A stretch of 64,000 bases of DNA from Escherichia phage IME08. A program made the translations under genes and the position numbers. Positions 18,528 through 61,938 of this stretch are shown here, in pieces (the stretch's first letter is position 1; the number at the start of each line of letters is the position of its first letter). Location: the sequence record NC_014260.1. One strand, 5' to 3'. The notes beneath the pieces were generated by a model. The model was not told where the DNA came from. It was given only the letters and a program-made list of their open reading frames with translations, and did not search any database.

Positions 18528-20612
18528 TTACCCTTGGATGAATTTTTCTGGGATGTCATAGAGGTCTATGCATGAAGCCAAAAGAGGCAGTACATCAAAC
18601 CGTGTAGATTTGACAAATGAATCAAAAGATACAGGGCTTTCGGAAGTATCGAAGTCATCTTGATATACGACCAACTCGCCGGTTTCCATTAGTACGTCAC
18701 CATCATACACCACAGATTCTTGAAGCTCATCTGTCGTCATAACTTCAGCTTGGATGAGTTTTGTATTATTAGATGTTGTTCCGTCATTATTAGAAGCATC
18801 TGTTATTTTATTAACTTTGACCATCAATCCGCGCGGTAGAATAACTTCAGCTTCTGTTGCTATTCCGAGACTTCCTGGATATACAACATTGACTTTATGA
18901 GCCCCATCAATCGCCCATCCTATTTGAACTTTAACGTAATCAGGATTTTCTTTATACGCTCTTATTTCATTAGGATTAATAGTTATTCCTTCTTCATTTT
19001 TATCGACTGTCAATTCATCGCGAACTTCCGGTTCTAAAAGACCAATACCAGCGTGTGTAACACCAAATCGTCCAAAAATGATAGGGGTTAAAGAAGTAGA
19101 TACAAAATTTCTGAAATAGAACACTTTATTTTTAACTAGTGCTTCGTATATAGGAGCAGTCATACTCTGTGCACGATAAACTGTGATGCCTTCTGGTATA
19201 CGGTCACCGTTTTCAAAAGCAGAATCCAAATTATTGACTGCAGATTCAATAGATTTTTCGTTCATTACATCATAGTTATGAGGATTATAGCGTCCTAAAA
19301 GAAGATTATTGATGTCTGTATATCCAGAACCACAATATTCTCTGATGCCGCGCTTTTGTGATGGGGTATATTTAGAGCCCTCACGAGCAATAGTAATATC
19401 GACCATAATACCGCCGCCCACACCAGCAAAACTATATACGCGTTTTTTAATGAATTTGGTCTTGGCTGCTTTCCACTTGGACTCGGTCAATTCATTCCAG
19501 AGGTCGTCGGGTTGGCCTTTACGAGTTTTGTTATGCTGGGCCAACCATTCGCCTTTGTATTCTTCGAAAACGGTATTAATAACAGAGGCATATTTTTCTA
19601 GAGCTTTAACAGATGTCAAAGGTTCGTTTTTGATGGCTGTAAGAATTTTCTCTTTAATTTTCTCTTGGATTTCACCTATACCATGAAGAGGAAACATTTT
19701 ATAATCGTAATGCAACTCTTCAGCAGTGCCTTCGGCTACTATATTAGCCACCTTATTTTTAGCCGCAGGAGAATTGTTATTAGTAACCATTTCCTGAGCC
19801 TCAGGGATTAATGGAGCTGTTGCCGGTTTATTAAAATCTACGGCAGTTGCTTCATATTTCTTAAACAGTTCACTTTCATTACGATAAGATTCTAACGATT
19901 GACTTGCTGCAATGGCACGACGAGAAATCTTAGTCTTGGTTATAACCATTTTATCAGTGCGACGTTCTTCAACTTTAGCAATACTGCCGGCAATAGCAGT
20001 TTCTTTAGTAACCTGCACACCTTCTTTTTTAGAAATATAAACTTCACCGACATCAGAATCTACCTTAGTGTATAATTCGGCATTAATTCCTGGCATACCT
20101 TTGATATCTTCGATATCAGCTTGTTTACGAACTACTAAGATATAAGTATGTTTACCAGTAAATTGGTACATAGCCGGAACTACTTTAAAACGTCCACCGG
20201 TTTTCTGTGCTACCAAACGTTGGATAATACGTTGGACAATAGGGCCTTGTCCTTTCATTTTCTTGGTAGGAAAACGGAACATGATGGCATCCATACGAAG
20301 CTTTTTAACTTGTTCGAATACTACGTCGAAAATGGTATTAATGGCATCAATAGGAGTAGGGCCTAAGCCGCCTTTAAGTTCAGCAGGAGAACCTTTAGCC
20401 GAAAGGCTCATAAGGATAACGTGGGCATATTTGTCACCTAATTTAACTTGTTTAATGGCATCGCCTTCAGAAGCGTAGGACACCATACGCGCCACTAATT
20501 GAGACTCTACGTCTCCAATCTTCCAAATCTGTGGTACTTTAAGTTTAGGGTTCAAGTTTACTGTAGGCAGTGTGCCTTCGGACTCAAACACTTCATTTAA
20601 TTGTTCGGTCAT
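18528..20612 (-). CDS. Alt-like ADP-ribosyltransferase, paralog B
   Basis: 694 aa; same architecture (YRAQ…, FVSTS, EAEVILPRG); divergent central segment. Confidence 0.85.
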   Translation of the reverse strand: MTEQLNEVFESEGTLPTVNLNPKLKVPQIWKIGDVESQLVARMVSYASEGDAIKQVKLGDKYAHVILMSLSAKGSPAELKGGLGPTPIDAINTIFDVVFEQVKKLRMDAIMFRFPTKKMKGQGPIVQRIIQRLVAQKTGGRFKVVPAMYQFTGKHTYILVVRKQADIEDIKGMPGINAELYTKVDSDVGEVYISKKEGVQVTKETAIAGSIAKVEERRTDKMVITKTKISRRAIAASQSLESYRNESELFKKYEATAVDFNKPATAPLIPEAQEMVTNNNSPAAKNKVANIVAEGTAEELHYDYKMFPLHGIGEIQEKIKEKILTAIKNEPLTSVKALEKYASVINTVFEEYKGEWLAQHNKTRKGQPDDLWNELTESKWKAAKTKFIKKRVYSFAGVGGGIMVDITIAREGSKYTPSQKRGIREYCGSGYTDINNLLLGRYNPHNYDVMNEKSIESAVNNLDSAFENGDRIPEGITVYRAQSMTAPIYEALVKNKVFYFRNFVSTSLTPIIFGRFGVTHAGIGLLEPEVRDELTVDKNEEGITINPNEIRAYKENPDYVKVQIGWAIDGAHKVNVVYPGSLGIATEAEVILPRGLMVKVNKITDASNNDGTTSNNTKLIQAEVMTTDELQESVVYDGDVLMETGELVVYQDDFDTSESPVSFDSFVKSTRFDVLPLLASCIDLYDIPEKFIQG

Positions 20613-20648
20613 AATAATTCCTCTTTAATAACCTTATTTATGCCAGAA

Positions 20649-20664
20649 AAGGCCCGAAGGCCTT
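20649..20664. terminator. hairpin AAGGCC-CGAA-GGCCTT (C(UUCG)G on minus transcript)
   Basis: Immediately upstream of alt paralog B start on the minus strand. Confidence 0.5.
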
Positions 20665-20836
20665 AAAGTGGTAGCAACGTACGGTATACTTCGAATGTCG
20701 GGCCTTTTTCGTAGCCATCAAAGACCTCAATAAATTTATTATATGCGGCTTCATCTATGAATTCTAAAATGGTTTGAGAAACGGCTGGGGCAGCCGTAGT
20801 ATGCGATATTACAATTGTTTCTAAATAAGCTTTCAT
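20663..20836 (-). CDS. hypothetical small protein (alt.1-like position)
   Basis: Probable start at internal ATG 20836, 1 nt after the ligase stop; ORF-track ORF 20663-20878. Confidence 0.4.
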   Translation of the reverse strand: MKAYLETIVISHTTAAPAVSQTILEFIDEAAYNKFIEVFDGYEKGPTFEVYRTLLPL

Positions 20837-20837
20837 A

Positions 20838-22343
20838 TTATAGTCCAGTTTGAGACCAATCACCGAATACATCTTCAAATGTATCAGCTTCTGTTTTATC
20901 GAAACGCCAACCTTTAATGATTGGAAGGAAAATACCTACAGTATCTGTACGTCCTTTAGAATGAACCCAACCATTACATTCACAGTCAGCAATACGTCCA
21001 ATCAACTTACCTTCACGAGCTTGTTTCATAAGAAGTTCACGGTCTAAATCAGGACGGTCTTCCAATGGAATCAATACCTTTTTACCTGATTTATCTTTCT
21101 TATGGGTGGTATCTTTAAAGCCTGAACCACAGTCACTTGTAATTCGTCGACAACGTGATACCAACTCGACCCCACCTAGTTTGTTAGGGTCCTTCGAGTG
21201 TTCATAATAACCTACTACTTCTAAAGCGATATCGATTACTTCTTTGAACTTGATAAGATTCTTAGAACGGCGGTTTTCCCAGTAGGAGTCCATGTTCTTA
21301 AGGATAATGCCTTCCAGACCTTGGTCGACATATTTTTTATAAACGACTTTAGCTTCTTCAAGATTATTAACCCATTGCGTTTCGATAGGCTCGACACGTG
21401 TAAAGCCTTCAGCCATTTGTACTAATGCCGCTAAACGAACATCGTATTTTTGACCTTTAATTTTGCCTTCAGAATAAACTTCATCCAGTGGAACAAAGTC
21501 CCATGCCTGTAATACCATACCATCGGCTTCAGCCGGAGTAATAGTTCCTTGAAGAGCCTTGTTAGCCAAGCCGTTTGAAGTAGAACGATCAGCGACAGTT
21601 TGGAATTCCTTAGCCTTACTTAATTCAGGAAGTTCCTCATCAAACATACTAAACAAATCATTAGATGCTTTAGGTTCTACTTTAGGAGTATGGTAAACTA
21701 ATTCACCATCAATCATAACCCCATTAGGATGGCGTTGTCGAGCTTCTTCGGTCATTTTAATAAGTTCGGCTGCAAGCTTAGTAAGCCCTTGATATTCATT
21801 ACCACCACGAGTAAGGAATGTCACCCCATCGTTACGAACTTCGGCAAAACAACGAGCACCGTCAGCTTTTAATTGAGCAAACGCTGGCCATTTAATATTT
21901 TTCTTAATTAAAGCTTCATCATAAGAACTAGCTAACATTTGAGGTTGTTCAGGGATTAAACCTTTCCAAACCTTGTTAGCAATAGAAATCGATGCACCGC
22001 ATTCAAGGTCACGCATCATTACACGACGTAATACCTCGGCATCCGAGGCCTTAGCATCAGCAATGATTTGAGCCAGTTCTTCAATAGCCGCATTACCCGT
22101 AATCTTACGGGTGGCTAATGTGAACTCTGCGAAATCAAGAAGGTCTTCAAGAGTAATCATACCAAAGGATTGAGACGTAAATCCAGGTTCTGGCCACTTT
22201 TTAATGCCATAGTTTAAACGACGGGTATAAGCCATACGATAAACACGTTTCAGAAGCTCATCGTCCTTTTCACGAGCAATAATGGCTTCTTTAGCTTTAG
22301 TAGAATCAATAGCAGCAATTTCGTTTAAGATATCTAAAATCAT
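20838..22343 (-). CDS. 30: ATP-dependent DNA ligase gp30
   Basis: Start at internal ATG (MILDILNEIAAI…); KADGARC adenylation motif; colinear with recalled T4 ligase. Confidence 0.9.
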   Translation of the reverse strand: MILDILNEIAAIDSTKAKEAIIAREKDDELLKRVYRMAYTRRLNYGIKKWPEPGFTSQSFGMITLEDLLDFAEFTLATRKITGNAAIEELAQIIADAKASDAEVLRRVMMRDLECGASISIANKVWKGLIPEQPQMLASSYDEALIKKNIKWPAFAQLKADGARCFAEVRNDGVTFLTRGGNEYQGLTKLAAELIKMTEEARQRHPNGVMIDGELVYHTPKVEPKASNDLFSMFDEELPELSKAKEFQTVADRSTSNGLANKALQGTITPAEADGMVLQAWDFVPLDEVYSEGKIKGQKYDVRLAALVQMAEGFTRVEPIETQWVNNLEEAKVVYKKYVDQGLEGIILKNMDSYWENRRSKNLIKFKEVIDIALEVVGYYEHSKDPNKLGGVELVSRCRRITSDCGSGFKDTTHKKDKSGKKVLIPLEDRPDLDRELLMKQAREGKLIGRIADCECNGWVHSKGRTDTVGIFLPIIKGWRFDKTEADTFEDVFGDWSQTGL

Positions 22344-22353
22344 AATCACCTCA

Positions 22354-22632
22354 TTAGTCATGGATTCTATTATAAGCCACATCGGCCAAAAGCAAGTCTA
22401 ATCGCTTATGATAAGAGAACACAAATCTCATTCGCCCGTCAGATTTAATTTTGGACATAAAATGGACATAAATGAATCCCTGTTCGACGCATTCGCGCCA
22501 AACAGGATGGTCTTTAGCCGGATTTACATCAAATGAGTAATCATGATTCACATGACGAATAAACTGGTTTACATGACCATAATCCATTGTAGTGGTAGGA
22601 CCATAGTCTGAAATTGTATGAACTACAAACAT
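22354..22632 (-). CDS. hypothetical protein (30.1-like)
   Basis: ORF with internal start MFVVHTIS…; T4-like position. Confidence 0.45.
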   Translation of the reverse strand: MFVVHTISDYGPTTTMDYGHVNQFIRHVNHDYSFDVNPAKDHPVWRECVEQGFIYVHFMSKIKSDGRMRFVFSYHKRLDLLLADVAYNRIHD

Positions 22633-22633
22633 A

Positions 22634-23272
22634 TTAACCTCGAGCAATCCATTCAACTGCGGCATTATTACGAAGGGATTCGATTGCTGCGATATCGTCC
22701 CATGAATTAACCTTTACGGCTAAATTAGGTTTAAAGTCACGTTCACCACGAGCTAACCAATAAACTTGGATATCCATGAGAACATTAGATGCTGCATCGC
22801 AGTGGTGAGCCAAATCATCAACATAAAACTTAATACGTTTACCGTATGTATTTTTAGCTCTTATGAACAAGTCTTCTTTTGATTCTGAATGACCACACAT
22901 CAGAATCTCCTTGAATGCGCCAGGGAACAAAGCATTCAAATTGAATTGTCTATTCAGCAGGGCATCAATTGAGTCGCCTAGCGCAGTCACGGCTACAAAA
23001 TCGAAGTCTTTTTTGAGCTTGTTGATATGTTTTAATGCGTCCATGTAAGGAGACAGATAACGAATAAAATCCGACTGATTATATTTCTCGATTAAACGAG
23101 CGCCCAATTCATTATCACAATTAAACAGCTCGCCTGGAGATAAGAAACGTTCGTCCTGAATCATATTCAAAATATGTTCTAAAGGCAAATTATATTTCTG
23201 TGCGAAATAAGGCAAGCCGGACTGCCAACTTAAACATACTCCATCGATATCTGTTAAGATAACTGGTTTCAT
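22634..23272 (-). CDS. HAD-superfamily phosphatase-like protein (30.2-like)
   Basis: 212 aa; N-terminal LTDIDGV (DxDG nucleophile motif) and distal Asp-containing motif. Confidence 0.55.
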   Translation of the reverse strand: MKPVILTDIDGVCLSWQSGLPYFAQKYNLPLEHILNMIQDERFLSPGELFNCDNELGARLIEKYNQSDFIRYLSPYMDALKHINKLKKDFDFVAVTALGDSIDALLNRQFNLNALFPGAFKEILMCGHSESKEDLFIRAKNTYGKRIKFYVDDLAHHCDAASNVLMDIQVYWLARGERDFKPNLAVKVNSWDDIAAIESLRNNAAVEWIARG

Positions 23273-23736
23273 AATAAATCTCTCAATTTGTTTAGGATGT
23301 CGATAAACTCTTTTTCAGTTAGTATTGTATCACATTCTGTAAGGTGGCTTGCCATCGAATGCTTTAAAACTTTACCTTTAGTGGCTTGTAACGCATCGCG
23401 GAATCCTTTGTTCTGGAGCGCTGCTTCAAAATACGCACTTTCGTAAAGCTCTTTCCACGCTGTGGAATATCTTGAAAACGGAGTTCCAAGCCAGAACAAC
23501 GTACCACGGTCCTGAGCTCTAGCATAAGCTCGTCCAGCTTGCTGAGCGGCCAACCCGGACATCCCAAATATACGTCTTTGTTGTTCAACATTTTTCACCT
23601 TACACCCTTGGAGGAATCCTTCGAGTCCACCAAATTGGATACCATCCATAACGAAAGGCCATTTAGCAAAGTTACTTAATGCGCATGATGGCCACGGAAA
23701 GTTGCTTCTGATTTCTAACTCAGACATCTTTGACAC
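23269..23736 (-). CDS. NADAR (YbiA-like) domain protein (30.3-like)
   Basis: 155 aa; LSNFAKWPFVMDGIQFGGLEGFLQGCK parallels E. coli YbiA FSNFAAWPIKVDGKTWPTSEHYFQAQK (recalled). Confidence 0.5.
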   Translation of the reverse strand: MSKMSELEIRSNFPWPSCALSNFAKWPFVMDGIQFGGLEGFLQGCKVKNVEQQRRIFGMSGLAAQQAGRAYARAQDRGTLFWLGTPFSRYSTAWKELYESAYFEAALQNKGFRDALQATKGKVLKHSMASHLTECDTILTEKEFIDILNKLRDLL

Positions 23737-23932
23737 TTACTACATCAACGTTTGCCCAATGTCCATAACTAGGTAGACGGTCTTTAATAGATAATCCACC
23801 GTCAGATTTCAGCATTTTAATTGTTTTAGTATATGGTTCAATATTTCGGGCCCATGGACTCCCGTCTGTTACGCGATAAGTCACTTCGACCATTTCCGTA
23901 CCTAATAATTTCTGAATCAATTTCTTAACCAT
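23720..23932 (-). CDS. hypothetical small protein
   Basis: 70-aa ORF in early cluster. Confidence 0.4.
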   Translation of the reverse strand: MVKKLIQKLLGTEMVEVTYRVTDGSPWARNIEPYTKTIKMLKSDGGLSIKDRLPSYGHWANVDVVSVKDV

Positions 23933-23933
23933 A

Positions 23934-24128
23934 TTATCCTCGCTTTAAACATTTGATTACAGACAGTTCACCACCCATACGAACATCTTCAGTTCCATCG
24001 ACCCATAGGACGGTGTAGGCTTCTTTAATAGTAACATTACCTAATTTAAAAGCAGGTATAACCTTTGAAATCATGCCAGGAATACCTACACCTTTTAATT
24101 GGACTGTTTGCGATAAGAATAGTTGCAT
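23934..24128 (-). CDS. hypothetical small protein
   Basis: 64-aa ORF, tightly packed with neighbours. Confidence 0.4.
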   Translation of the reverse strand: MQLFLSQTVQLKGVGIPGMISKVIPAFKLGNVTIKEAYTVLWVDGTEDVRMGGELSVIKCLKRG

Positions 24129-24415
24129 TAGAACCTCATCTGAAAGCCATGTGATTTAACATTACCGCCATAGATGTCAGATGTATTGACTTCACGTGCA
24201 GCGCTCGGGTCGATATTGATATCATGGTTGAGCTTAGTGATTGCTAGGGTATCACGACCATTAACAGTACGGAATTCTACTGGGCACACAGCATCAGCAT
24301 AAGCCTTAATAGATTCACGAGTAGGTTGTTTGTCGGCAGGAACGTCTTTACCTGCTTTAGAGAAAACAACTTCACAGAAATTTTTACGAGTATCAAAATA
24401 AGTGGTCATAAACAT
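24128..24415 (-). CDS. hypothetical protein
   Basis: Start at internal ATG after GAGGAAA RBS. Confidence 0.45.
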   Translation of the reverse strand: MFMTTYFDTRKNFCEVVFSKAGKDVPADKQPTRESIKAYADAVCPVEFRTVNGRDTLAITKLNHDINIDPSAAREVNTSDIYGGNVKSHGFQMRF

Positions 24416-24430
24416 AATATTTTCCTCAAA

Positions 24431-24446
24431 GGAGGCCGAAGCCTCC
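24431..24446. terminator. hairpin GGAGGC-CGAA-GCCTCC (C(UUCG)G on minus transcript)
   Basis: Between two minus-strand ORFs; the stem contains the RBS-like GGAGG. Confidence 0.5.
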
Positions 24447-24456
24447 ATTTTTAAGA

Positions 24457-24822
24457 TTAGATATCGAATTCGTTCAGAACTACATCAAAGATTGCTTCCA
24501 GGTGTTCAGGTTTAGCTCGGTTGCTCAGGATGTGACGAATCCAAGTTTTAACCAGAAGCTTACGATTATCACCGTTCCAGCAAGGATGGGTACCTAAATC
24601 ACGTTGACGGAAATCGTCATCTAAAGCGATTTTAAAAGTAGAACCTTCCATTGTGATTGAAACCGTAATACCATTTTCAAAGCGCATATAAACGTAGTTA
24701 GGAGTCATGCACTGTTCGATTTCGCACACTGTACCGTTGTTGTGTTTCCACAGGCAAATAACTTCAGAAGAACCAGCGATACCGTTAGAAACATATTTAC
24801 GTTCGAAGTTGATGTAGTTCAT
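24457..24822 (-). CDS. hypothetical protein
   Basis: 121-aa ORF preceded by an early-promoter cassette. Confidence 0.5.
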   Translation of the reverse strand: MNYINFERKYVSNGIAGSSEVICLWKHNNGTVCEIEQCMTPNYVYMRFENGITVSITMEGSTFKIALDDDFRQRDLGTHPCWNGDNRKLLVKTWIRHILSNRAKPEHLEAIFDVVLNEFDI

Positions 24823-24863
24823 TTTATTCTCCAGTTTGTTTTCGTATTATTTGGTACAGGTCT

Positions 24864-24892
24864 ATAATAACACAACCTGTACCAAAGTAAAC
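24864..24892 (-). promoter_or_regulatory. T4-type early promoter (GTTTAC-N17-TATTAT) with flanking inverted repeat
   Basis: Plus-strand ATAATA 24864-24869 and GTAAAC 24887-24892; GGTACAGG/CCTGTACC inverted repeat brackets the -10. Confidence 0.55.
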
Positions 24893-24896
24893 TGTT

Positions 24897-25265
24897 TTAT
24901 GCAACTTTAATCCAATTATCTAAATTTAATTCACCTTTGGCTTTCATTTTTTCAATCAAATCATCGGCAGTGGTGCGACCATTTTGATACCATGTAACAT
25001 CTTCAGAATAACCGGTTTCTTCATCTTCATAGGTCTTACAACGAATCTTACCGGTTATGATAGTTTTCAGTTCGTAGGTATCACCGGTAAAAAAGTTTGT
25101 TACCATAATTTTCCAAGAGAAGTCATCAGAAGGACCTTCCGGAGTCATGCAACCTACAAATTCAAATTGTTCTTTGTACAAGCGCCATTGCATTTCTTTA
25201 GTTTCGATTGCTTTGTAACCGTCGTGGTCTTTACATTTGATATATGAGTTAAGATTGATTTTCAT
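24897..25265 (-). CDS. hypothetical protein
   Basis: 122-aa ORF preceded by a near-identical promoter cassette. Confidence 0.5.
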   Translation of the reverse strand: MKINLNSYIKCKDHDGYKAIETKEMQWRLYKEQFEFVGCMTPEGPSDDFSWKIMVTNFFTGDTYELKTIITGKIRCKTYEDEETGYSEDVTWYQNGRTTADDLIEKMKAKGELNLDNWIKVA

Positions 25266-25306
25266 TTTATTCTCCAGTTTGTTTTTGTATTATTTGGTAC
25301 ATGTCT

Positions 25307-25335
25307 ATAGTATCATGCCTACCGGAGATGTACAC
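25307..25335 (-). promoter_or_regulatory. T4-type early promoter variant (GTGTAC-N17-TACTAT)
   Basis: Plus-strand ATAGTA 25307-25312 and GTACAC 25330-25335. Confidence 0.45.
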
Positions 25336-25363
25336 CCTTTTTTAAAGATTTAGAAACAAAAAT

Positions 25364-26585: not shown

Positions 26586-26643
26586 ATTTAATCCATATTG
26601 TTTTGTTGATAGATTAATAATAACACGCTATTCTTAAAGCATA

Positions 26644-26940
26644 TTACAGGACAAGCAGAGTTTCGGTCTGAAGCCCATTAACAGAAATCAGCTTATCGAA
26701 ACGGAATGAGCGCCATTGTTGAAGGTCGACATCAAAAACATATAGAGAATTACGTGGGCCCTGTTTACCTGTTTGAGATTTGAAGTCTTCCTTTTTAGGA
26801 AGAAGGTCTAAGTCCCGAGTACATTTAAGACGACGAATATTACCATTAATCTTTTCAAACACCACTTCGTGAGTGCCTACAGACAGGATGGTTTTTACTT
26901 TTTCACATAGACGAATTGTTTCTTGTTCAGTTAAAATCAT
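26644..26940 (-). CDS. hypothetical protein (31.1-like)
   Basis: 98-aa ORF. Confidence 0.45.
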   Translation of the reverse strand: MILTEQETIRLCEKVKTILSVGTHEVVFEKINGNIRRLKCTRDLDLLPKKEDFKSQTGKQGPRNSLYVFDVDLQQWRSFRFDKLISVNGLQTETLLVL

Positions 26941-32572: not shown

Positions 32573-32602
32573 TTTGTTTTCTCCTCATTAGTTGGTAAGT
32601 CT

Positions 32603-32631
32603 ATACTAACACATCATGAGGAGATGTAAAC
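32603..32631 (-). promoter_or_regulatory. T4-type early promoter (GTTTAC-N17-TAGTAT)
   Basis: Plus-strand ATACTA 32603-32608 and GTAAAC 32626-32631. Confidence 0.55.
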
Positions 32632-33779
32632 TACTCTACCACAATTTCTTTCAAATATTTTTCAGGGATTTGGGCTTTATGGTTTTTCAAGAACACCGAG
32701 TTAATCTGGTCTACAACCGTATCATAATTAATACCGCCTACGTACGCCTGCATAAGAATAGAGAACAACCCTGGGAAGTCCTTAAGGATTAGCTGTCCGG
32801 TAACGGCATAGTCTTTACGGTCGCGGCCCTTGAGTTGGGAATACGCTGCTTCCAACAAAGCCAATGATTGTTCTAGGTAATCTAAATGGATGCGTTCAAA
32901 GGCATCGATTTTCTCGATAGCAAACGAATCTGTACTGAACAGACCACGAAGGTCGTCAGTTCCACCTGCCACTACAACTTCAAACAAACGTTCGTTATTG
33001 TTAATGGAATCTTTGGTATGATGCAATGCACTGTACCAGGCAGTTTTGAGTTTAAAGAACGTACCATCTTTCAGTACAAAGATGAAACCTTCAATACCCT
33101 CTTGTTTACGGATGTTTTCTACGAAATCACCTTCAGTGAGGTCATAACTTTCAACCAAATGCTTACGCAGGGCCCCATCTTTAAACAGTTCGGCATACGG
33201 AATATATTCACCTGTTTCATTATTACGAACATTCAACAGGATGAGGTTTGTTTCTTGGTAAGCCAGCACGATACGGTTGGTAGGTGCAACATATTCAAGG
33301 TTGCAGGTATACCCAGCTTTGGTGATTTCTTCTAGACGTGCGGCAAAAGCCTCGTTCTCAGGGAGACGAAGGAAGCGTAAAGAATCATGCACCATTGATG
33401 AATGGATAGAGCCTTTAGATTTAACAGAAAGATACTGTCGGTCCATGAATGTAGAAATCAGAGAACCATCTTCCTTAGCCATTACGAGGTCGATATTTTC
33501 TGGCGACAAATCTAGACCGATAGTCAGTGGGTTTTCGTCAAGGTTAAAGAACTTTTGCATAGGACGAGCAGCAATACGTACCGGACCGTTCTCGTCCATT
33601 TCAAACATAATGCCACGGCACTCTAGTGCGCCGTCTTCCAACCAATCACTGTACGATGCATAGTTATAACTAAAGATGCGATAGTTGACTCCTAGCGCAC
33701 TCTGAAAGTCTTTAAAGAAGAACTTAGATTTAGTCGAGTTTTTAACCAGGGCCATCAAGTTATCATATAATTCAATCAT
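32631..33779 (-). CDS. rnlA: RNA ligase 1
   Basis: 382 aa; KEDGSL adenylation motif; position. Confidence 0.85.
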   Translation of the reverse strand: MIELYDNLMALVKNSTKSKFFFKDFQSALGVNYRIFSYNYASYSDWLEDGALECRGIMFEMDENGPVRIAARPMQKFFNLDENPLTIGLDLSPENIDLVMAKEDGSLISTFMDRQYLSVKSKGSIHSSMVHDSLRFLRLPENEAFAARLEEITKAGYTCNLEYVAPTNRIVLAYQETNLILLNVRNNETGEYIPYAELFKDGALRKHLVESYDLTEGDFVENIRKQEGIEGFIFVLKDGTFFKLKTAWYSALHHTKDSINNNERLFEVVVAGGTDDLRGLFSTDSFAIEKIDAFERIHLDYLEQSLALLEAAYSQLKGRDRKDYAVTGQLILKDFPGLFSILMQAYVGGINYDTVVDQINSVFLKNHKAQIPEKYLKEIVVE

Positions 33780-39482: not shown

Positions 39483-39507
39483 TTTATTCTCCTTAGTTGA
39501 CAAGGCT

Positions 39508-39537
39508 ATAGTATCACTACCATAGCCTGAGGTAAAC
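39508..39537 (-). promoter_or_regulatory. T4-type early promoter (GTTTAC-N18-TACTAT)
   Basis: Plus-strand ATAGTA 39508-39513 and GTAAAC 39532-39537. Confidence 0.5.
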
Positions 39538-39765
39538 TTATTTTTGAATTAGGCCCATATAAAATTTAGCGTCTTCCGGGTGCATACCGTCACAATACTC
39601 GACAGCCATAAAGCGGGTAAGGTCTTCAAGAGGACCTTGGACTTCAATTTGCATACTACAGAATTGCGTATCTTTAATATGGGTCATAACTAAAGAAGGA
39701 TAACGATTACGGATAACTTCGTAAGTGTATTCAAAATCAACGATATCAATATTAACCTTAGCCAT
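39538..39765 (-). CDS. hypothetical small protein (frd.2-like)
   Basis: Start ATG 39765 after GAGGAAA RBS. Confidence 0.4.
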
Positions 39766-39797
39766 TTTATTTTCCTCACTCATTAGTTGATAGGTCT

Positions 39798-39826
39798 ATA
39801 GTATCATGTTTAAAGCAGATGTAAAC
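39798..39826 (-). promoter_or_regulatory. T4-type early promoter (GTTTAC-N17-TACTAT)
   Basis: Plus-strand ATAGTA 39798-39803 and GTAAAC 39821-39826; conserved TTGATAGGTCTATAGTA cassette. Confidence 0.55.
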
Positions 39827-39828
39827 AC

Positions 39829-40089
39829 TTATTTTTGAATTTTATCAAGCCATTTACCAAGCTTAATCATTTCTTTGGTAGCTTTTTCCATACTTCTGAA
39901 TTTAACCAGTAAAGGTTGTGCATCAACACCCATAACTAAAGTGGTTACAAGACTATGTTCACCTACAAGCCATAACGAATACGTTTGGATATCGAGCCCG
40001 TAATTTCGGTCTTTATGAACTCGTACACCCATCACTTCAAATTTCTCACTGGCTTTTTCTACTGCATCCAGGAAATCATCTTTAGTCAT
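39829..40089 (-). CDS. hypothetical protein (frd.3-like)
   Basis: Start at internal ATG 40089, 1 nt after upstream stop. Confidence 0.4.
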   Translation of the reverse strand: MTKDDFLDAVEKASEKFEVMGVRVHKDRNYGLDIQTYSLWLVGEHSLVTTLVMGVDAQPLLVKFRSMEKATKEMIKLGKWLDKIQK

Positions 40090-40090
40090 A

Positions 40091-40477
40091 TTAGGCCTTA
40101 AAAGTTTTTTGCAAAAGTTCAATGATTTGGTCAACGTTCTGTTCGGTGACAATGCAATGGATTTGAGTCACGCCCGCCTTAGTAACGGGTTCGTCAACTT
40201 CGTCTTGTTCAGCACATTCACGGAAGCAATAGAATTCATCTTCGTGCAATTCAAAATAATTTGGCACCAACCCAACTTCATTATAAGTCTCGCCGTTAGC
40301 GCATTCGATTTCAGTCACAAATTTGTCGCCATCCATAGTCAACATATCCTTTACTTCAAACCAACCGCCGTTGTCTTGGATAAGGTCGACCATGCTTTTA
40401 TTATTTTCATATTCGTCCATTTCAATAAAGTCTTTAATGCATTCAGGACGAAGTTCATATTTTTTACCGATTTCCAT
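40091..40477 (-). CDS. hypothetical acidic protein
   Basis: 128-aa ORF with GAGGAAA RBS and early promoter. Confidence 0.5.
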   Translation of the reverse strand: MEIGKKYELRPECIKDFIEMDEYENNKSMVDLIQDNGGWFEVKDMLTMDGDKFVTEIECANGETYNEVGLVPNYFELHEDEFYCFRECAEQDEVDEPVTKAGVTQIHCIVTEQNVDQIIELLQKTFKA

Positions 40478-40506
40478 TTTTATTTCCTCATGTAGTTGAT
40501 AGGTCT

Positions 40507-40535
40507 ATAGTATCATGTTTAAAGGCATTGTAAAC
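40507..40535 (-). promoter_or_regulatory. T4-type early promoter (GTTTAC-N17-TACTAT)
   Basis: Plus-strand ATAGTA 40507-40512 and GTAAAC 40530-40535. Confidence 0.55.
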
Positions 40536-40551
40536 CATTAAATGCCAAAAA

Positions 40552-41493: not shown

Positions 41494-41582
41494 TTTATTT
41501 ACCTTAGCAGATTTAGCAGTTGTATTTTATTAACAGTTTTTAACAGATTGAGTTAGTATATTAACACAGTTTATTTGGAGCA

Positions 41583-42236
41583 TTAAAACTTACAAGATTT
41601 GATAGTTTCAATGAACAATTTACGAGCTTCTAAATTATCAATTATAAGGATTTTCTTATAAGCATTTAATTTAGTCGAATACTTAGACCACACTAAATCG
41701 TTGGTCTGTTCATCATGTTTATTTATTATATCCATAAATGAATCAAGCAAAATAAACGTTTCGAATGAAATAACATTCGATTGAAGGAGCTTAAAAATAT
41801 AGCTCGAGTTAACTTTTTTATTATAATCAAAAATTTCAGAAAGCGCTTGAACTTCCACTTTCTTACTAAAATAATAAATGTTTTTGATATCATCCTCAAA
41901 AACTTGTTTTATTCTTTTAAGTCTACCGATATATTCTCGGTAAAAGACTAAGGCGTCAGCATCACTGATGTCGCCAATCCATGCGTCTTGGTTAGCCACC
42001 AAGTTACTCATGAAGATAAGAGCAAGCTCTTTCAAAGTGTATTTATCACTCAATTTCTCAAAGAAATATTTGTCACGACGTTTTTGATAAGCCGTATCAG
42101 AGATTCGCATGACCCAGTTATATTTTATAACGTCGTATTTGGCATTGAAGTGATGTTTGAGCATTAAGTATAGTGAATATACGCTCTTACCATTCACCAT
42201 ACGGTTATTGTTTGGTGGCATGCGAATCTTAATCAT
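41583..42236 (-). CDS. 59: helicase loader gp59
   Basis: 217 aa (T4 gp59 217 aa); position. Confidence 0.8.
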   Translation of the reverse strand: MIKIRMPPNNNRMVNGKSVYSLYLMLKHHFNAKYDVIKYNWVMRISDTAYQKRRDKYFFEKLSDKYTLKELALIFMSNLVANQDAWIGDISDADALVFYREYIGRLKRIKQVFEDDIKNIYYFSKKVEVQALSEIFDYNKKVNSSYIFKLLQSNVISFETFILLDSFMDIINKHDEQTNDLVWSKYSTKLNAYKKILIIDNLEARKLFIETIKSCKF

Positions 42237-42535
42237 AACAAGAAATCCAGGGTATTAGTCTTTTGCGTTCGGGCCATTGAAGGTCGAAGCAAGTTATCAT
42301 CAATGGCTTCGTTCATAATTTTATCAATAATTCCTGCAGGCAAATAACGAGCAAAGTTACCTTCAGGGATGCTGTTCTCTTCCAACCATGCGGTAGCCGC
42401 TTCGAGATAGCTACATCCTTCAGCCTCAACAAAGGCCTCAATATCAAGGCCATTCTGTTGTTTGTTCACCAATACATGGACAGGTTCGGAAGCGGTATTA
42501 ACCGCTCCATCAAAATCATTCAAAGATTGTGTCAT
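42233..42535 (-). CDS. 33: late transcription co-activator gp33
   Basis: 100 aa; C-terminal LDFLL clamp-binding-like motif. Confidence 0.65.
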   Translation of the reverse strand: MTQSLNDFDGAVNTASEPVHVLVNKQQNGLDIEAFVEAEGCSYLEAATAWLEENSIPEGNFARYLPAGIIDKIMNEAIDDNLLRPSMARTQKTNTLDFLL

Positions 42536-43743: not shown

Positions 43744-43810
43744 ATGAACCTCTGTCCAATTAGTGTAGAGGTTCATTATATCATGACCCTAGAAGAAGTA
43801 AACACTTTGC

Positions 43811-55261: not shown

Positions 55262-55302
55262 AATATTCTCTTCAATTCAGTACGACATTATCTGATAGGG
55301 CT

Positions 55303-55331
55303 ATACTAACATATCCTTAGGGATTGTAAAC
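55303..55331 (-). promoter_or_regulatory. T4-type early promoter (GTTTAC-N17-TAGTAT) for asiA
   Basis: Plus-strand ATACTA 55303-55308 and GTAAAC 55326-55331. Confidence 0.55.
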
Positions 55332-55475
55332 ATGTTCTTCGTTCTTTTTAACATATTCCTGATACATCTCTTCTATTGGTTCCTGGAACTTAAAATCAGC
55401 TCCCAGGAATTCCTCAAAGCACTCCTGCTCACGCGTACGCATGCCTGTTACGGTATTCTCTAAGTTATGGCTCAT
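55317..55475 (-). CDS. small acidic protein, hypothetical
   Basis: 52 aa, Glu-rich (MSHNLENTV…EEFLGADFKFQEPIEEMYQEYVKKNEEH); not in ORF track. Confidence 0.3.
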   Translation of the reverse strand: MSHNLENTVTGMRTREQECFEEFLGADFKFQEPIEEMYQEYVKKNEEHVYNP

Positions 55476-56334: not shown

Positions 56335-56678
56335 TTGAAAATTACCTTATGGCCGATATCTTTAGCGAATTCTTGAATTTTGGTGGCAGTTTCAATTAAA
56401 TCACCTTTATAATAGGATGATAATTTAATATTAACTGTTTGGCCCTCGCCATACGAAGTTATATTTACCTTTTCAATAAAAATAATCTCAAGAAATCGTA
56501 ATAACTGCATACCAAATTCAAGATAAACGTTATCAATCTGGAGATTGAGTTGATAAATTTTCTTAATACCATTTACCAGAGCCACACGCTCATCCCAATC
56601 ATTACGCTGCTCTTCAATCAATTTAAGGGAATGGCCTTCGCCGTCCCAGTCAAGTTCCATCGGAATCATTTGAACCAT
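56331..56678 (-). CDS. hypothetical protein
   Basis: 115-aa ORF. Confidence 0.45.
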
Positions 56679-56995
56679 CCTTTAACACGTTGCCATAAAG
56701 TTTTCTGTTGAGCTTTATTAACACCAATTGAACGAATGACAGGTTGTGATTCCTGGTATTCTTTGTAGTCCGCTTTATAGACTTCATAAGCGGCTGGAAC
56801 AAAGGTGCTGATTGCGGCCATAAAGTTCTTACGAATTCCCATAGAAGCTTCAGAACCACCACGGATGATTAAGTATTTACCTGCTTTAATCTTAACAATA
56901 GTGCCGAGATAAGCACCGTGGTACCAAATGTCCCAACCTTCTTGAGTAGGTTCTGCACAACGACGAAGTTCATTAACAATATTCAGCTTGTTCAT
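56666..56995 (-). CDS. hypothetical protein
   Basis: 109-aa ORF. Confidence 0.45.
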   Translation of the reverse strand: MNKLNIVNELRRCAEPTQEGWDIWYHGAYLGTIVKIKAGKYLIIRGGSEASMGIRKNFMAAISTFVPAAYEVYKADYKEYQESQPVIRSIGVNKAQQKTLWQRVKGWFK

Positions 56996-57013
56996 AATAA
57001 TTTCCTCAGTCAG

Positions 57014-57646
57014 TTAAATTGCGTTGGTTACGGTTTTGATAACTTCAGATGATACGTTTTGGAAGTCAATATAAGTATTCTTACCACCAGTCTTAATCTT
57101 AACATCAAGATTCAAGGAAGTAAACACTTGTTTTTCTTTATCAGTCATATTATAACCGAAGATACGCATCATTCCGTCACGACGGACTTCGATTTGACGA
57201 ATACCATTGGTACGTTTGGCGAATCGAACTTCAAGGTTGCTACGGTTTTCAGCAATTTCACGAATCTCGATACGGTCTTCTAATAAAGCTTTAACTTCAT
57301 CAGCCAATGTTACCATTTCAGGAGTAACACCACGTGAACTACGCGTTTTACGTTTTTCCAACATCTCAGGAGCATTTTCAGAAGCGAACAAGTCGGCAGC
57401 TTTTTGAACAAGGTCCATTGCTTCACCCGTAGCCACTAAACCATCACCGGATTTTTCGATGAACCCTTTCTTAATCAATACACCGATGTTAGAGTTGACC
57501 ACCGCAGCACTAAATTGCTCACTCAGGGCTTCACGGACTTCGCCTGAAGTGATGAAGTTATGCTTGATGATATGTACTAAGATCGAAGCAGTTTTTTCAT
57601 TCAGGGCGTCTTCAGAAGCTTTGATGATATAAGTAATTTTAGACAT
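57014..57646 (-). CDS. motA: middle-mode transcription activator MotA
   Basis: 210 aa; MSKITYIIKAS…VNSNIGVLIKKGFIEKSGDGL… matches recalled MotA. Confidence 0.9.
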   Translation of the reverse strand: MSKITYIIKASEDALNEKTASILVHIIKHNFITSGEVREALSEQFSAAVVNSNIGVLIKKGFIEKSGDGLVATGEAMDLVQKAADLFASENAPEMLEKRKTRSSRGVTPEMVTLADEVKALLEDRIEIREIAENRSNLEVRFAKRTNGIRQIEVRRDGMMRIFGYNMTDKEKQVFTSLNLDVKIKTGGKNTYIDFQNVSSEVIKTVTNAI

Positions 57647-57680
57647 TTTAATCTCCGATAACCATTTATTTGATAGGTCT

Positions 57681-57710
57681 ATAATAACATTATCATAGAC
57701 CTTTGTATAT
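57681..57710 (-). promoter_or_regulatory. early promoter-like cassette upstream of motA (weak -35)
   Basis: Shares TTGATAGGTCTATAATA; -35 position reads GTATAT rather than GTAAAC on plus. Confidence 0.35.
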
Positions 57711-57720
57711 AATTTTTTAA

Positions 57721-57942
57721 TTAAATTGCGCTTTTAACATAATCAACATAAGCTTCAACAACTTTCTTAGAAGAAATTTTAGCTTGACCACGACCATTAC
57801 CGGTTTTTAAATTTTTCTTAACAACCACTTTATCTGACTTAACACCCCATACATGGATATAAGTATCTAAATCACAATCAAAGAACATTGCATGATCGGT
57901 ATTAGCATTGTAGAAAAAAGAATTAATATTTAAGGTTTTCAT
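57721..57942 (-). CDS. hypothetical small protein
   Basis: Start ATG 57942 after GGAGA RBS inside the repeated cassette. Confidence 0.4.
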   Translation of the reverse strand: MKTLNINSFFYNANTDHAMFFDCDLDTYIHVWGVKSDKVVVKKNLKTGNGRGQAKISSKKVVEAYVDYVKSAI

Positions 57943-58000
57943 TTTGTATCTCCATTTCACTCTGTTGTTTTGATAGGTCTATAATAACACGTTTAAAGCA
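57940..58000. repeat. 61-bp direct repeat copy 1 (start codon + leader + RBS + early promoter -10)
   Basis: Identical to 58263-58323. Confidence 0.8.
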
Positions 58001-58009
58001 AAAGTAAAC
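57981..58009 (-). promoter_or_regulatory. T4-type early promoter (GTTTAC-N17-TATTAT)
   Basis: Plus-strand ATAATA 57981-57986 and GTAAAC 58004-58009. Confidence 0.55.
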
Positions 58010-58049
58010 TTTATTTTGAGCTCTTTTCAAGAGCTCTGGTAAAAATTAC

Positions 58050-58265
58050 TTAGATTGATAGGTCTTTAATCTCGGCGATTAAAGCAGCTTTTCCTTCACG
58101 AAGTTTTTCCAGTTCACGACCATTAGAGCCGCGAACTACTAAGGAATTTATCTCTATTTCCAACCAATTTAGTTTTTCAACCAGTTCTTTACGTTTAGCA
58201 TTCATGCCGGGTTTAACTTTACCGAAACGGATGGTAGCGTTTTGGGTATTTTTCATCTTATTCAT
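58050..58265 (-). CDS. hypothetical small protein
   Basis: Start ATG 58265 in second cassette copy; coiled-coil-like composition. Confidence 0.4.
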   Translation of the reverse strand: MNKMKNTQNATIRFGKVKPGMNAKRKELVEKLNWLEIEINSLVVRGSNGRELEKLREGKAALIAEIKDLSI

Positions 58266-58323
58266 TTTGTATCTCCATTTCACTCTGTTGTTTTGATAGG
58301 TCTATAATAACACGTTTAAAGCA
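58263..58323. repeat. 61-bp direct repeat copy 2
   Basis: Identical to 57940-58000. Confidence 0.8.
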
Positions 58324-58332
58324 GATGTATAC
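58304..58332 (-). promoter_or_regulatory. T4-type early promoter variant (GTATAC-N17-TATTAT)
   Basis: Plus-strand ATAATA 58304-58309 and GTATAC 58327-58332. Confidence 0.45.
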
Positions 58333-58357
58333 CTTTATTTTCACTAAACCCAAAAAA

Positions 58358-58373
58358 GGAACCCGAAGGTTCC
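58358..58373. terminator. hairpin GGAACC-CGAA-GGTTCC
   Basis: Follows the stop of the small membrane ORF. Confidence 0.55.
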
Positions 58374-58376
58374 TTA

Positions 58377-58478
58377 CTTTTTAAAGTGAGCTGCTATTAA
58401 ACCTATAGCTAAGCCTGTCGCCAGGCCTAGGATAACAGCAAAGATACAGAGTAACAAGAACTCGACTCCAAGGCTCAT
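58377..58478 (-). CDS. small hydrophobic membrane peptide, hypothetical
   Basis: 33 aa MSLGVEFLLLCIFAVILGLATGLAIGLIAAHFK; start ATG overlaps gene 52 stop (ATGA). Confidence 0.3.
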
Positions 58479-59854
58479 AGAGCCTCCAAATCTTTAACAT
58501 ACTCAGTTACCACATCAGTGGTTTTCCAGTATCGGTGCTCTTCTTTCTTAGCCTTGGCTTCGAGGGCCAGTTTCTTGGCTTCATCAGAAGTGATATGGAA
58601 AATGTTCATGGCCACTAGTTTATCAGCGTATTCGCCATAGACTTTATTACTAGCCAATTCTTCGGTTAAAACCTTGCGAGTCTTACCTTGGATAACCACT
58701 ACACCATCAATAACATCTTTGATAAATGTGGCTTTAGCCAATGCCAGTTTGAAAGCTTCTTCAGTTTCGATGATTTTACCATCAATACGTTTCTGTACAA
58801 AGGTCTTACGGACCTCAACGAAATCACGAATCAGTTCAACTGCATCTTCGTAAACCTTAAGTTTACCTTTCTCATTAATGACAGTCAGGTTTTGTGAACG
58901 ACGTTCGATTAACCCGAAGTCCTTCATGATTTTTTCATGCTTCTTATTTTCTTCGGTAGGCAATTCATATTCTTTACGAATCTTAACCTTGAAGCCGAAA
59001 CCGTTCTCGTCACAGTCATCATCATATGTGATATACCCTTTGTCTTCCAGAGGGTCTAATATCTTGGCCACATATGTTTCACGGTCATATTTGTACGGGA
59101 TTTCCGTGATATGCATTTGGGTTCGGGATGTGAACTTATACGTTCCACGAATCTCATAACTACCTGGTTCAATTTCAACAACTTCACCACGGAATTCAGG
59201 ATAAGCCACTTTAGGTTTTGTTACTCGTTTTTCCTGAAGAACTTGCAATACAGCTTTCTTAACAGAATCAAAACTATGAGGAAGAATATTAGTTGCATAA
59301 CCAGTTGCAATACCGGAAACGCCATTAAGAAGAACAGTAGGAATAATAGGCAGATAAAAAGCCGGTGGCTTATGTTCGACATCCGCATGAACCGGAGCAT
59401 ATTCTGTGTCCTTATAAACTTTTGCAAAGTTACTTCCAATACGTGCAAAGATATAACGAGAGGCCGCAGCTTTTTGAACCAATCGGGAACCAAAGTTACC
59501 TTGACCGTCTAACAATGGATAGTTGTTGTTCCATGTGTTAGCCATCAAAGCCCCTGCTTCCTGAGCAGAACCTTCACCATGGTGATATCCAAGGTCGGCT
59601 ACACCACCAGCGATAGAAGCCAGTTTGTGGAATTTTTCTTTATTACCACGAGCCATATCAAGACAACGAGCAACCACAAAACGTTGTACAGGTTTAAAGC
59701 CATCAATCATATTTGGAATGGCTCGGTTTTCGACAGTATACATTGCATAAGCCAATGCTTCGTTGTCGATAATACTTTTTAAGTCACGAGGAGTAAAAGC
59801 ATCGTCGTAAACATCTAAAGCCTGTTTAAAAAGGGTATCAATTACATCAGCCAT
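58475..59854 (-). CDS. 52: DNA topoisomerase II medium subunit gp52
   Basis: 459 aa; GyrA-like N-terminus (AIPNMIDGFKPVQRF…, SRYIFAR with active-site Tyr context). Confidence 0.9.
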   Translation of the reverse strand: MADVIDTLFKQALDVYDDAFTPRDLKSIIDNEALAYAMYTVENRAIPNMIDGFKPVQRFVVARCLDMARGNKEKFHKLASIAGGVADLGYHHGEGSAQEAGALMANTWNNNYPLLDGQGNFGSRLVQKAAASRYIFARIGSNFAKVYKDTEYAPVHADVEHKPPAFYLPIIPTVLLNGVSGIATGYATNILPHSFDSVKKAVLQVLQEKRVTKPKVAYPEFRGEVVEIEPGSYEIRGTYKFTSRTQMHITEIPYKYDRETYVAKILDPLEDKGYITYDDDCDENGFGFKVKIRKEYELPTEENKKHEKIMKDFGLIERRSQNLTVINEKGKLKVYEDAVELIRDFVEVRKTFVQKRIDGKIIETEEAFKLALAKATFIKDVIDGVVVIQGKTRKVLTEELASNKVYGEYADKLVAMNIFHITSDEAKKLALEAKAKKEEHRYWKTTDVVTEYVKDLEAL

Positions 59855-61122: not shown

Positions 61123-61335
61123 TTATTCAGCGTCAACAGAAATAGCCATCAGTTCATCAACAGTAAGGCACTGTACACTTGGCCCTACACAAAAACGCTT
61201 AGTTGAATCATAAAGGTCTGTAGCATTAACAGGTTGTAATTCAGTACCAACTTGCAAAGGAGAAATGCGAATCAGTTGTTGACCATTATGTAATACAAAG
61301 CTCTCACCAACTGCAACATCTTTAAAAAGTTTCAT
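61123..61335 (-). CDS. hypothetical protein
   Basis: Start at internal ATG after GAGGAAA RBS. Confidence 0.4.
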   Translation of the reverse strand: MKLFKDVAVGESFVLHNGQQLIRISPLQVGTELQPVNATDLYDSTKRFCVGPSVQCLTVDELMAISVDAE

Positions 61336-61345
61336 AATATTTTCC

Positions 61346-61456
61346 TCAGAAGTTAAAGAATACACGTACATGGTCAATCATAAAAACGATTGGGAAAATG
61401 CTCAATACCAAAAATAACACAAACATGTTCCAAATTGCTTTAAGTAAGTTTTTCAT
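61346..61456 (-). CDS. small hydrophobic membrane peptide, hypothetical
   Basis: 36 aa MKNLLKAIWNMFVLFLVLSIFPIVFMIDHVRVFFNF; GGAG RBS. Confidence 0.3.
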   Translation of the reverse strand: MKNLLKAIWNMFVLFLVLSIFPIVFMIDHVRVFFNF

Positions 61457-61482
61457 AATCATCTCCATTAGTTGATAGGTCT

Positions 61483-61511
61483 ATAATATCATGATTAATG
61501 GAGATGTATAC
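61483..61511 (-). promoter_or_regulatory. T4-type early promoter variant (GTATAC-N17-TATTAT)
   Basis: Plus-strand ATAATA 61483-61488 and GTATAC 61506-61511. Confidence 0.45.
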
Positions 61512-61601
61512 TGATTTATGCCAATTTCCACAACAATAAACTAAAACATACACAAATCACTGGGATACAGGCCATCCAAATAAGGCACCACGTTTTGCTA
61601 C

Positions 61602-61868: not shown

Positions 61869-61896
61869 TTTGTTCTCCTCATTAGTTGATAGGAAG

Positions 61897-61926
61897 ATAG
61901 TAACACCATCCATGGCGTATGTAAAC
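61897..61926 (-). promoter_or_regulatory. T4-type early promoter (GTTTAC-N18-TACTAT)
   Basis: Plus-strand ATAGTA 61897-61902 and GTAAAC 61921-61926. Confidence 0.5.
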
Positions 61927-61938
61927 ACTTATTTTAAA

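Follow-up and report, generated by a model that had tools for sequence, protein, structure and literature searches.

Two neighbouring small genes on the early strand of Escherichia phage IME08 start with one and the same promoter region, leader, ribosome-binding site (RBS) and start codon, while the coding sequences behind them are unrelated. This locus raises the question of whether such a repeat provides portable homology for the shuffling of small early genes. The initial annotation of the locus proposed this role and compared the repeat with the promoter-early stem-loop (PeSL) cassettes described for T4-type phages. PeSLs are defined by an AT-rich tract, a sigma-70-type early promoter, a variably placed stem-loop, a Shine-Dalgarno (SD) sequence and a start codon (PMC2839356, PMC4122927). 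PeSLs are numerous in variable regions, close relatives differ by indels at these elements, and crossovers have been reported between the -10 box and the ATG (PMC2839356, PMC4122927). The phages treated in these papers are RB49/phi1, T4/PST, and KVP40/nt-1; JS98 is mentioned only for PeSL-like sequences near g43 (PMC2839356, PMC4122927). A full-text literature search retrieved no paper on PeSLs in the JS98 group.

The stretch analyzed in this study, referred to as the window, comprises 64,000 nt of sequence record NC_014260.1. We consider it probable, at roughly 80%, that the repeats are PeSL-type regulatory cassettes of Dhakavirus, and that genes are shuffled by phage homologous recombination between their copies.

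Anatomy of the repeat and of the 52-motA slot

The window stems from a T4-like phage of the Straboviridae, Tevenvirinae, and belongs to the genus Dhakavirus, as do AnYang, IME341, and JS98. In a megablast search with positions 56500-59500, AnYang and IME341 were 96.9% identical at 92% coverage and JS98 was 94% identical. The repeat pair is located on the minus (early) strand in a variable slot. Gene 52 (topoisomerase II medium subunit, 59854-58475) and an overlapping 34-aa membrane ORF (phrog_16377, 58478-58374) form its upstream anchor, and motA (57646-57014) is the downstream anchor gene; all of them are encoded on the minus strand. The order in the direction of transcription is gene 52, the 34-aa ORF, a hairpin with a U6 run, the P1 cassette, ORF A, stem-loop SL2, the P2 cassette, ORF B, the early promoter of motA (PmotA), and motA.

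The longest exact direct repeat measures 63 bp, with copy 1 (58261-58323, minus strand) before ORF A and copy 2 (57938-58000, minus strand) before ORF B. At 93% identity, the repeat can be followed over 80 bp (57938-58017 and 58261-58340). As simple counting gives an expectation of approximately 1e-29 for an exact 63-bp repeat in 64 kb, the repeat is not a product of chance. The initial annotation had reported 61 identical bp (57940-58000 and 58263-58323); the identity holds, but the exact repeat is the longer one given here.

Read on the minus strand, either copy is TGCTTTAAACGTGT-TATTAT-AGACCTATCAAAACAACAGAGTGAAATGGAGATACAAA-ATGAA. The perfect repeat is thus composed of 14 nt from the promoter spacer, the -10 box, the leader, a GGAG Shine-Dalgarno sequence, and the start codon plus 2 nt. 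The initial transcribed sequence after the -10 box is AGACCTATCAA, and the SD with the start codon reads GGAGATACAAAATG in both copies. In one respect the repeat contains less than had been stated: the -10 box, leader, GGAG, and ATG lie inside it, but the -35 box (GTATAC vs. GTTTAC) is situated just beyond the perfect repeat, within the 93% extension. Promoter P1 (58304-58331, minus strand) consists of the -35 box TATACA (within GGTATACA), a 16-nt spacer, and a TG-extended -10 box TATTAT; it scored 9/12 with TG in the promoter scan and 52.5 with the position weight matrix (PWM) described below. P2 (57981-58008, minus strand), likewise detected by PWM and promoter scan, has the -35 box TTTACT (within GTTTACT) and the same spacer length and extended -10 box. 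Immediately upstream of the -35 box, AAAATAAAG is found at both promoters. Judged by sequence alone, the boxes of P1 and P2 fit the TTTACW...TAYWAT consensus published for T4/PST.

On its own, the 63-nt unit is unstructured (-2.3 kcal/mol; folds at least as stable were obtained for 194 of 200 shuffled sequences), a property that would suit a translation-initiation region. A structured RNA element in the repeat was ruled out by this result and by the absence of an Rfam match; with the Rfam covariance models, no hit reached the gathering score in the window and none had E ≤ 1 in 57500-58600. A MotA-dependent middle promoter in the spacer was rejected as well. Such promoters have the MotA box (TGCTTtA) ~12-15 nt ahead of the -10 box, the annotated rule being GCTT-N13-15-TATAAT; TGCTTTA is present in the spacer, but only 9 nt separate GCTT from TATTAT.

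Upstream of P1, a terminator scan predicted an intrinsic-terminator hairpin, AAGGAACC-UUCG-GGUUCCUU followed by U6 (58350-58375, minus strand). Its hairpin part (58356-58375) folds with -11.9 kcal/mol and is kept in AnYang, JS98, MX01, and JS10. Stem-loop SL2, AGAGCUCU-UGA-AGAGCUCU, with an 8-bp stem as folded, lies between ORF A and P2 (58018-58036, minus strand; -11.0 kcal/mol, z -3.8). It has no U-run, hence it is not a canonical terminator. SL2 is kept in JS98, JS10, Sf21, and Mosigvirus SA79RD, with one compensatory change from A-U to G-C. PmotA (57669-57713, minus strand; PWM and promoter scan) has the 21-nt sequence TGTTATTATAGACCTATCAAA in common with both cassettes, and a 12-bp hairpin (57675-57702; -14.6 kcal/mol, z -4.8) spans its -10 box.

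ORF A (58050-58265, minus strand) encodes 71 aa and belongs to phrog_6200; it occupies the same slot in JS98-type Dhakaviruses and in Mosigvirus. ORF B (57721-57942, minus strand; 73 aa), characterized by translation, tblastn, and PHROG match, belongs to phrog_13302. The two are unrelated, as the initial annotation had recognized: BLASTP gave no alignment at E ≤ 100 and the PHROGs differ, which rules out diverged tandem paralogues. ORF A, ORF B, and a third slot gene, ORF C, match PHROGs of unknown function only (6200, 13302, and 10955), and neither these ORFs nor the 34-aa ORF had a match in Pfam, PADLOC, or PDB sequence searches. The end of ORF A (58055-58071, minus strand) reads ...AAAGACCTATCAATCTAA, a copy of the AGACCTATCAA motif within coding sequence that is present in JS98 too and missing from the Mosigvirus homologue; this copy may have been left behind by an older cassette junction.

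A cassette family on the early strand

A PWM was built from the copies and both strands of the window were scanned. Thirteen early-promoter cassettes were detected, each of them on the minus strand. All 13 have a GTTTAC-like -35 box and a TAnTAT -10 box, and each ends with an SD followed by ATG. The family pattern is a GTTTAC-like -35 box, a 16-nt spacer, TG-n-TA(Y)TAT, AGACCTATCAA, and a short leader with GGAG or GAGG before the ATG. The claim of at least ten related cassettes is roughly right, the number 13 applying to this wider family; for the literal motif, TTGATAGGTCTATA[AG]TA, six exact matches and seven with up to two mismatches were found, vs. 0.06 expected in the window.

The cassettes are located in the 30.x, 32-frd, arn-motA-52, and ndd regions. 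Besides the slot, a second pair (39787-39830 and 40496-40539) flanks two ORFs downstream of gene 32. A third pair (24853-24896 and 25296-25339) shares the leader AAATAATAC[A/G]AAAACAAACTGGAGAATAAAATG with different ORFs behind it. Two more cassettes (61472-61515 and 61886-61929) were identified by PWM and motif search, and single ones by PWM at 55292-55335, 39497-39540, 32592-32635, and, with a weaker score of 24.5, at 43764-43807; all of them are on the minus strand. The pair at 57938 and 58261 is the most alike of all with 63 exact nt, and the next pairs have 32 and 25 nt.

A fourteenth PWM match (26606-26649, minus strand) fits a MotA-box middle promoter instead (ATGCTTTA, GCTT-N14-TATTAT). 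In many cassettes, the spacer following the -35 box and the initial transcribed motif are complementary (AGGTCTAT/ATAGACCT; GGTACAGGT/ACCTGTACC), and in others the spacer is complementary to the SD region (ATCTCCATTA/TAATGGAGAT; TCTCCTCAT/ATGAGGAGA). The resulting hairpins span the -10 box, as in the cassettes at 57670, 24853, 39497, 61472, and 32592.

Gene turnover and transfer at the slot

Slot states were assigned from a multiple alignment of the 52-motA intergenic regions of the window and its relatives, and from tblastn counts. Comparison with related phages revealed gene turnover between cassette copies, with five states: no gene, A, B, C, and A+B. The slot is empty in at least 10 Dhakavirus records. 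In one of the empty slots, that of MX01, the cassette leader ...GTGAAATGGAGATACAAAATG is fused straight to the motA coding sequence at its ATG, at a junction that rests on just ~6-13 nt of common sequence. AnYang has the terminator, a cassette, ORF B, and PmotA. In JS98, CLB_P2, and Mosigvirus SA79RD, ORF A comes after the terminator and cassette, and behind it stand the stem-loop and a hybrid promoter that has the motA leader. JS10 carries the unrelated ORF C (phrog_10955) with the same promoter before it and the same stem-loop after it, and ORF C is also found at the slot of Tequatrovirus Sf21. According to tblastn, ORF A is present with ≥90% identity in 15 records and with ~73% in Mosigviruses, the exact ORF A protein of the window not being on record. 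ORF B is 100% identical in AnYang, IME341, and 04086 only. ORF C is 100% identical in the JS10 group and 98.7% identical in many Tequatroviruses, at the same slot.

The ORF C module crosses a genus boundary. JS10 (Dhakavirus) and Sf21 (Tequatrovirus) are ~99% identical over ~400 nt, vs. 50-75% in the gene 52 and motA flanks. Within the upstream promoter, the tract starts at CTATCAAATAAATG in the -10/initial-transcribed motif; it covers ORF C, the stem-loop, and PmotA and stops ~8 nt past the beginning of motA (ATG+8). The module was exchanged between the two genera, with tract ends set by the cassette.

ORF B and the leader also occur at other genomic positions. Homologues of ORF B (63-66% identical) are located ~87 kb away, beside 57B, in Mosigvirus ST0 and between 39 and rIIA in Aeromonas phage 25; both lie in variable regions and have their own early promoter ahead of them. 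The leader TATAGACCTATCAAAACAACAGAGTGAAATGGAGA also precedes the unrelated 70-aa ORF D (MKLSNQAINMLNEV...) in JS98 (at ~62.9 kb), VR5, IME341, and others, ~100 kb from the 52-motA slot. A single leader is hence used by four genes, namely ORFs A, B, and D and, in MX01, motA.

In the window, A and B stand in tandem, an arrangement known from this one sequence only. None of 50,697 phage records in INPHARED covered ≥80% of 57600-58520 in one place, and no close match was found for the junction of stem-loop, P2, and ORF B. IMG/VR returned only IME341 and a distant Pectobacterium phage, and JGI metagenomes contained no A+B. This singularity would be expected if the tandem were an assembly chimera from a mixed population of A-only and B-only phages, and short-read assemblies do break in this leader. 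We nevertheless regard a chimera as extremely improbable. The A-to-P2-to-B junction (GCTTTAAACGTGTTATTATAG...) cannot be obtained by simply joining known A-only and B-only sequences, each of the two promoters has variants present in neither type, and the 63-bp repeat is below ordinary read length. The contig breaks are accounted for by ORF D: Logan short-read contigs carrying ORF B stop 36 nt upstream of its ATG, because a second genomic copy of the leader precedes ORF D in ordinary Dhakavirus genomes. These contig ends were for the same reason discarded as a hint of tandem A+B in other samples.

The variants shared by the two promoters indicate concerted change. CGTGTTATTAT is found in both window copies, as opposed to CATGATACTAT at the orthologous promoters in JS98, AnYang, and CLB_P2. 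Both carry ...AAACGTGTTATTATAG, and the orthologues of the same three phages ...AAACATGATACTATAG, with flanks that are 96-97% identical. The adjoining motA promoter also has TGTTATTAT. A variant common to the tandem copies points to conversion among them or to a very recent duplication.

Indel junctions at the slot and at other loci

Indels were defined from colinear BLAST chains of the window against JS98, AnYang, and MX01, and nucleotides aligning to both ends were counted as overlap. At the slot, the overlap was 80 nt for the ORF A indel, 59 nt for the A+B indel, and 22 nt for the ORF B indel, so that all three are situated between direct repeats, the cassettes. As aligned, every junction at the slot falls within a cassette. 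Overlaps of 0-28 nt were determined for the non-cassette indels.

Two further loci behave in the same way. Downstream of gene 32, the cassettes at 40496 and 39787 enclose 647 nt (39827-40473) with two ORFs that are missing from AnYang. The overlap at this junction amounts to 63 nt and lies within the cassettes, of which AnYang retains a single chimeric one with the crossover between SD and ATG. JS98 has an additional frd.2 paralogue inserted at the cassette downstream of gene 32. In the 30.7/30.8 region, the cassettes at 25296 and 24853 have a 33-nt leader in common with different ORFs behind it. AnYang is without 860 nt here, with breakpoints at the -10/transcribed motif and the RBS GAGGAAAATATTATG, and between the same two cassettes the first ORF is represented in JS98 by a divergent allele.

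Among the clean indels relative to the three relatives, 6 of 18 touch cassettes, which make up 1.4% of the window. Random placement predicts 0.5 such indels, and none of 20,000 placements reached six. This uniform-placement test overstates the enrichment, because whole-gene indels are viable only with ends in intergenic sequence, much of which is occupied by promoters. More specific evidence than the placement enrichment comes from the long junction overlaps.

These data bear on a simpler explanation, in which the repeats are conserved just as good early promoters and initiation regions, and gene differences arose by illegitimate recombination with selection keeping intergenic junctions. The positions of the -35, -10, TG, and GGAG elements are plainly under functional constraint, and the 12 clean indels without cassettes fit this explanation as well. 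We hold it to be unlikely, however, since the 63 nt are perfect even at spacer and leader positions that vary freely in the other 11 cassettes, and since both copies have a -10-region variant missing from the orthologous promoters of close relatives. Furthermore, junction overlaps of 59-80 nt are a signature of homologous crossover, and the boundary of the inter-genus transfer lies inside a promoter motif.

Some of the 12 indels that touch no cassette use short RBS/ATG homology and others involve homing-endonuclease genes in relatives. AnYang and MX01 have annotated homing-endonuclease genes beside genes 32 and 59 that are missing in the window (41542-41584 and 42228-42237); no cassette is involved in these indels. 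The translation-initiation string GAGGAAAATATTATG occurs twice in the window (61333-61347 and 24413-24427, minus strand), both times at indel junctions. In JS98, two copies of it flank an additional 136-nt ORF, and the 860-nt deletion of AnYang ends at it. RBS-ATG units seem to serve by themselves as short recombination homology.

Additional differences from the relatives were observed elsewhere in the window. A 288-aa ORF (2863-3729, plus strand) adjoins a Hoc-like ORF (3762-4895, minus strand), with a weak Ig_2 match and a C-terminus that is alike; the ~980 nt containing it are missing from JS98, AnYang, and MX01, and it may be a second Hoc-like decoration gene. A 232-aa ORF (7610-8308, minus strand) between uvsW and uvsY is missing from the same three phages and has no Pfam match; by eye only, it seems to resemble a free-standing homing endonuclease. 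In the alt region (18860-25229), the window is JS98-like in length, with a net length difference of about -1.9 to -2.1 kb relative to AnYang and MX01. Three Alt-like genes are annotated in this region in AnYang and MX01, and two in JS98.

Proposed mechanism of gene exchange

The proposal that the repeats act as portable homology for gene shuffling is supported by the five slot states, the junctions in cassettes, the ~400-nt inter-genus module, and the two further loci. From consensus and hairpins, we infer promoter and terminator activity of the cassettes. Each unit would comprise a stem-loop for terminating or attenuating transcription that arrives from upstream, together with an A-rich tract, a sigma-70 early promoter, AGACCTATCAA, an unstructured GGAG leader, and the ATG. 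Such a cassette would make each small early gene an insulated, self-expressed, and separately transcribed module.

The 20-63 bp common to many copies could support crossover by T4-type homologous recombination, for which less than 50 bp of homology is needed according to Singer et al. (1982), as cited in PMC2839356. Within one genome, a crossover would result in deletion or in excision of a mini-circle; between co-infecting phages, it would lead to unequal crossover or mini-circle integration. In this way, insertion, deletion, or replacement would affect whole genes and leave promoter, RBS, and start codon untouched.

We likewise infer the recombination pathway and the direction of events. The A+B arrangement could have arisen by one crossover between the second promoter of a JS98-type (A-only) phage and the first promoter of an AnYang-type (B-only) phage, which have ~41 nt in common. 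Alternatively, integration of a one-gene circle would yield the same gene order. The perfect 63-bp repeat would be the footprint of this event, of gene conversion at a later time, or of both. If the two 63-bp copies recombine with each other, a B-only genome and a 323-bp circle with ORF A are predicted, and the predicted circle with ORF B, formed between 21-bp repeats, would measure ~300 bp.

A dedicated sequence-specific mechanism, for example an integron-like one with a protein recognizing the hairpins or AGACCTATCAA, might take the place of general homologous recombination. The AGACCTATCAA/CTATCAA motif after the -10 box is kept across Dhakavirus, Mosigvirus, and Tequatrovirus loci, several junctions are located exactly at it, and Arbiol et al. 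(PMC2839356) raised this possibility for PeSL stem-loops. Its probability appears quite low to us, because the crossovers occur at various points of the cassette (the promoter spacer, the -10/transcribed motif, and SD-ATG) and because the slot is without a recombinase or integrase gene, ORFs A, B, and C matching only PHROGs without assigned function. Similarly improbable is a specific version of this idea, in which AGACCTATCAA, often hairpin-paired with the spacer, would be the recognition or nicking site of a phage-encoded, integron-like cassette exchange without a classical integrase, and A+B a captured intermediate. General homologous recombination between cassette copies is the preferred reading.

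Relation to known systems and significance

Comparability with PeSLs, as put forward in the initial annotation, was confirmed in that the anatomy fits the published definition. The cassettes are built from the same composite parts (AT-rich tract, early promoter, stem-loop, SD, and start codon), and many copies stand on the early strand before small genes of unknown function in variable regions. Junctions of indels and replacements between close relatives are situated in the element, here at three loci, and the crossover zones between the -10 box and the ATG correspond to those mapped for RB49 mini-circles. Unlike the PeSL papers, this analysis concerns the genus Dhakavirus, with two adjacent copies that are 100% identical over 63 bp. 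In addition, the stem-loops are AT-richer, with UUCG loops or spanning the -10 box, whereas those of PeSLs are polyG/polyC. The slot cassettes display every PeSL feature that sequence can reveal, and they would be a new example of the mechanism described.

The conserved early-promoter-based elements of the internal-protein (IP) loci of T-even coliphages, with weak AT-rich stem-loops and located at the flanks of highly polymorphic small genes, are also similar as far as their secondary description goes (Repoila et al. 1994, via PMC2839356 and PMC4122927); unlike these, the present loci are 52-motA, 32-frd, and 30.x. As with the Botstein-Campbell linkers of lambdoid phages, modules are separated by short conserved sequences that provide homology for their exchange while regulation is kept, but here the linker is the expression signal itself and is repeated many times per genome. 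Morons (Hendrix et al. 2000) and integron cassettes are likewise single genes travelling with their own expression or recombination signals. However, morons are not thought to move via regulatory sequences, and integrons need an integrase and attC sites, neither of which is present here.

JS98/Dhakavirus phages are widely used in phage-therapy cocktails. Near-identical therapeutic phages can differ in small early genes beside motA, and short-read assemblies tend to break at such leaders. The tandem A+B with its 63-bp repeat would be a substrate for measuring gene excision and mini-circles, and the sufficiency of general T4 recombination. The slot offers a clean natural series (empty, A, B, C, and A+B) together with an inter-genus transfer with cassette-defined ends, and would extend PeSL-type modular shuffling to the JS98/Dhakavirus group.
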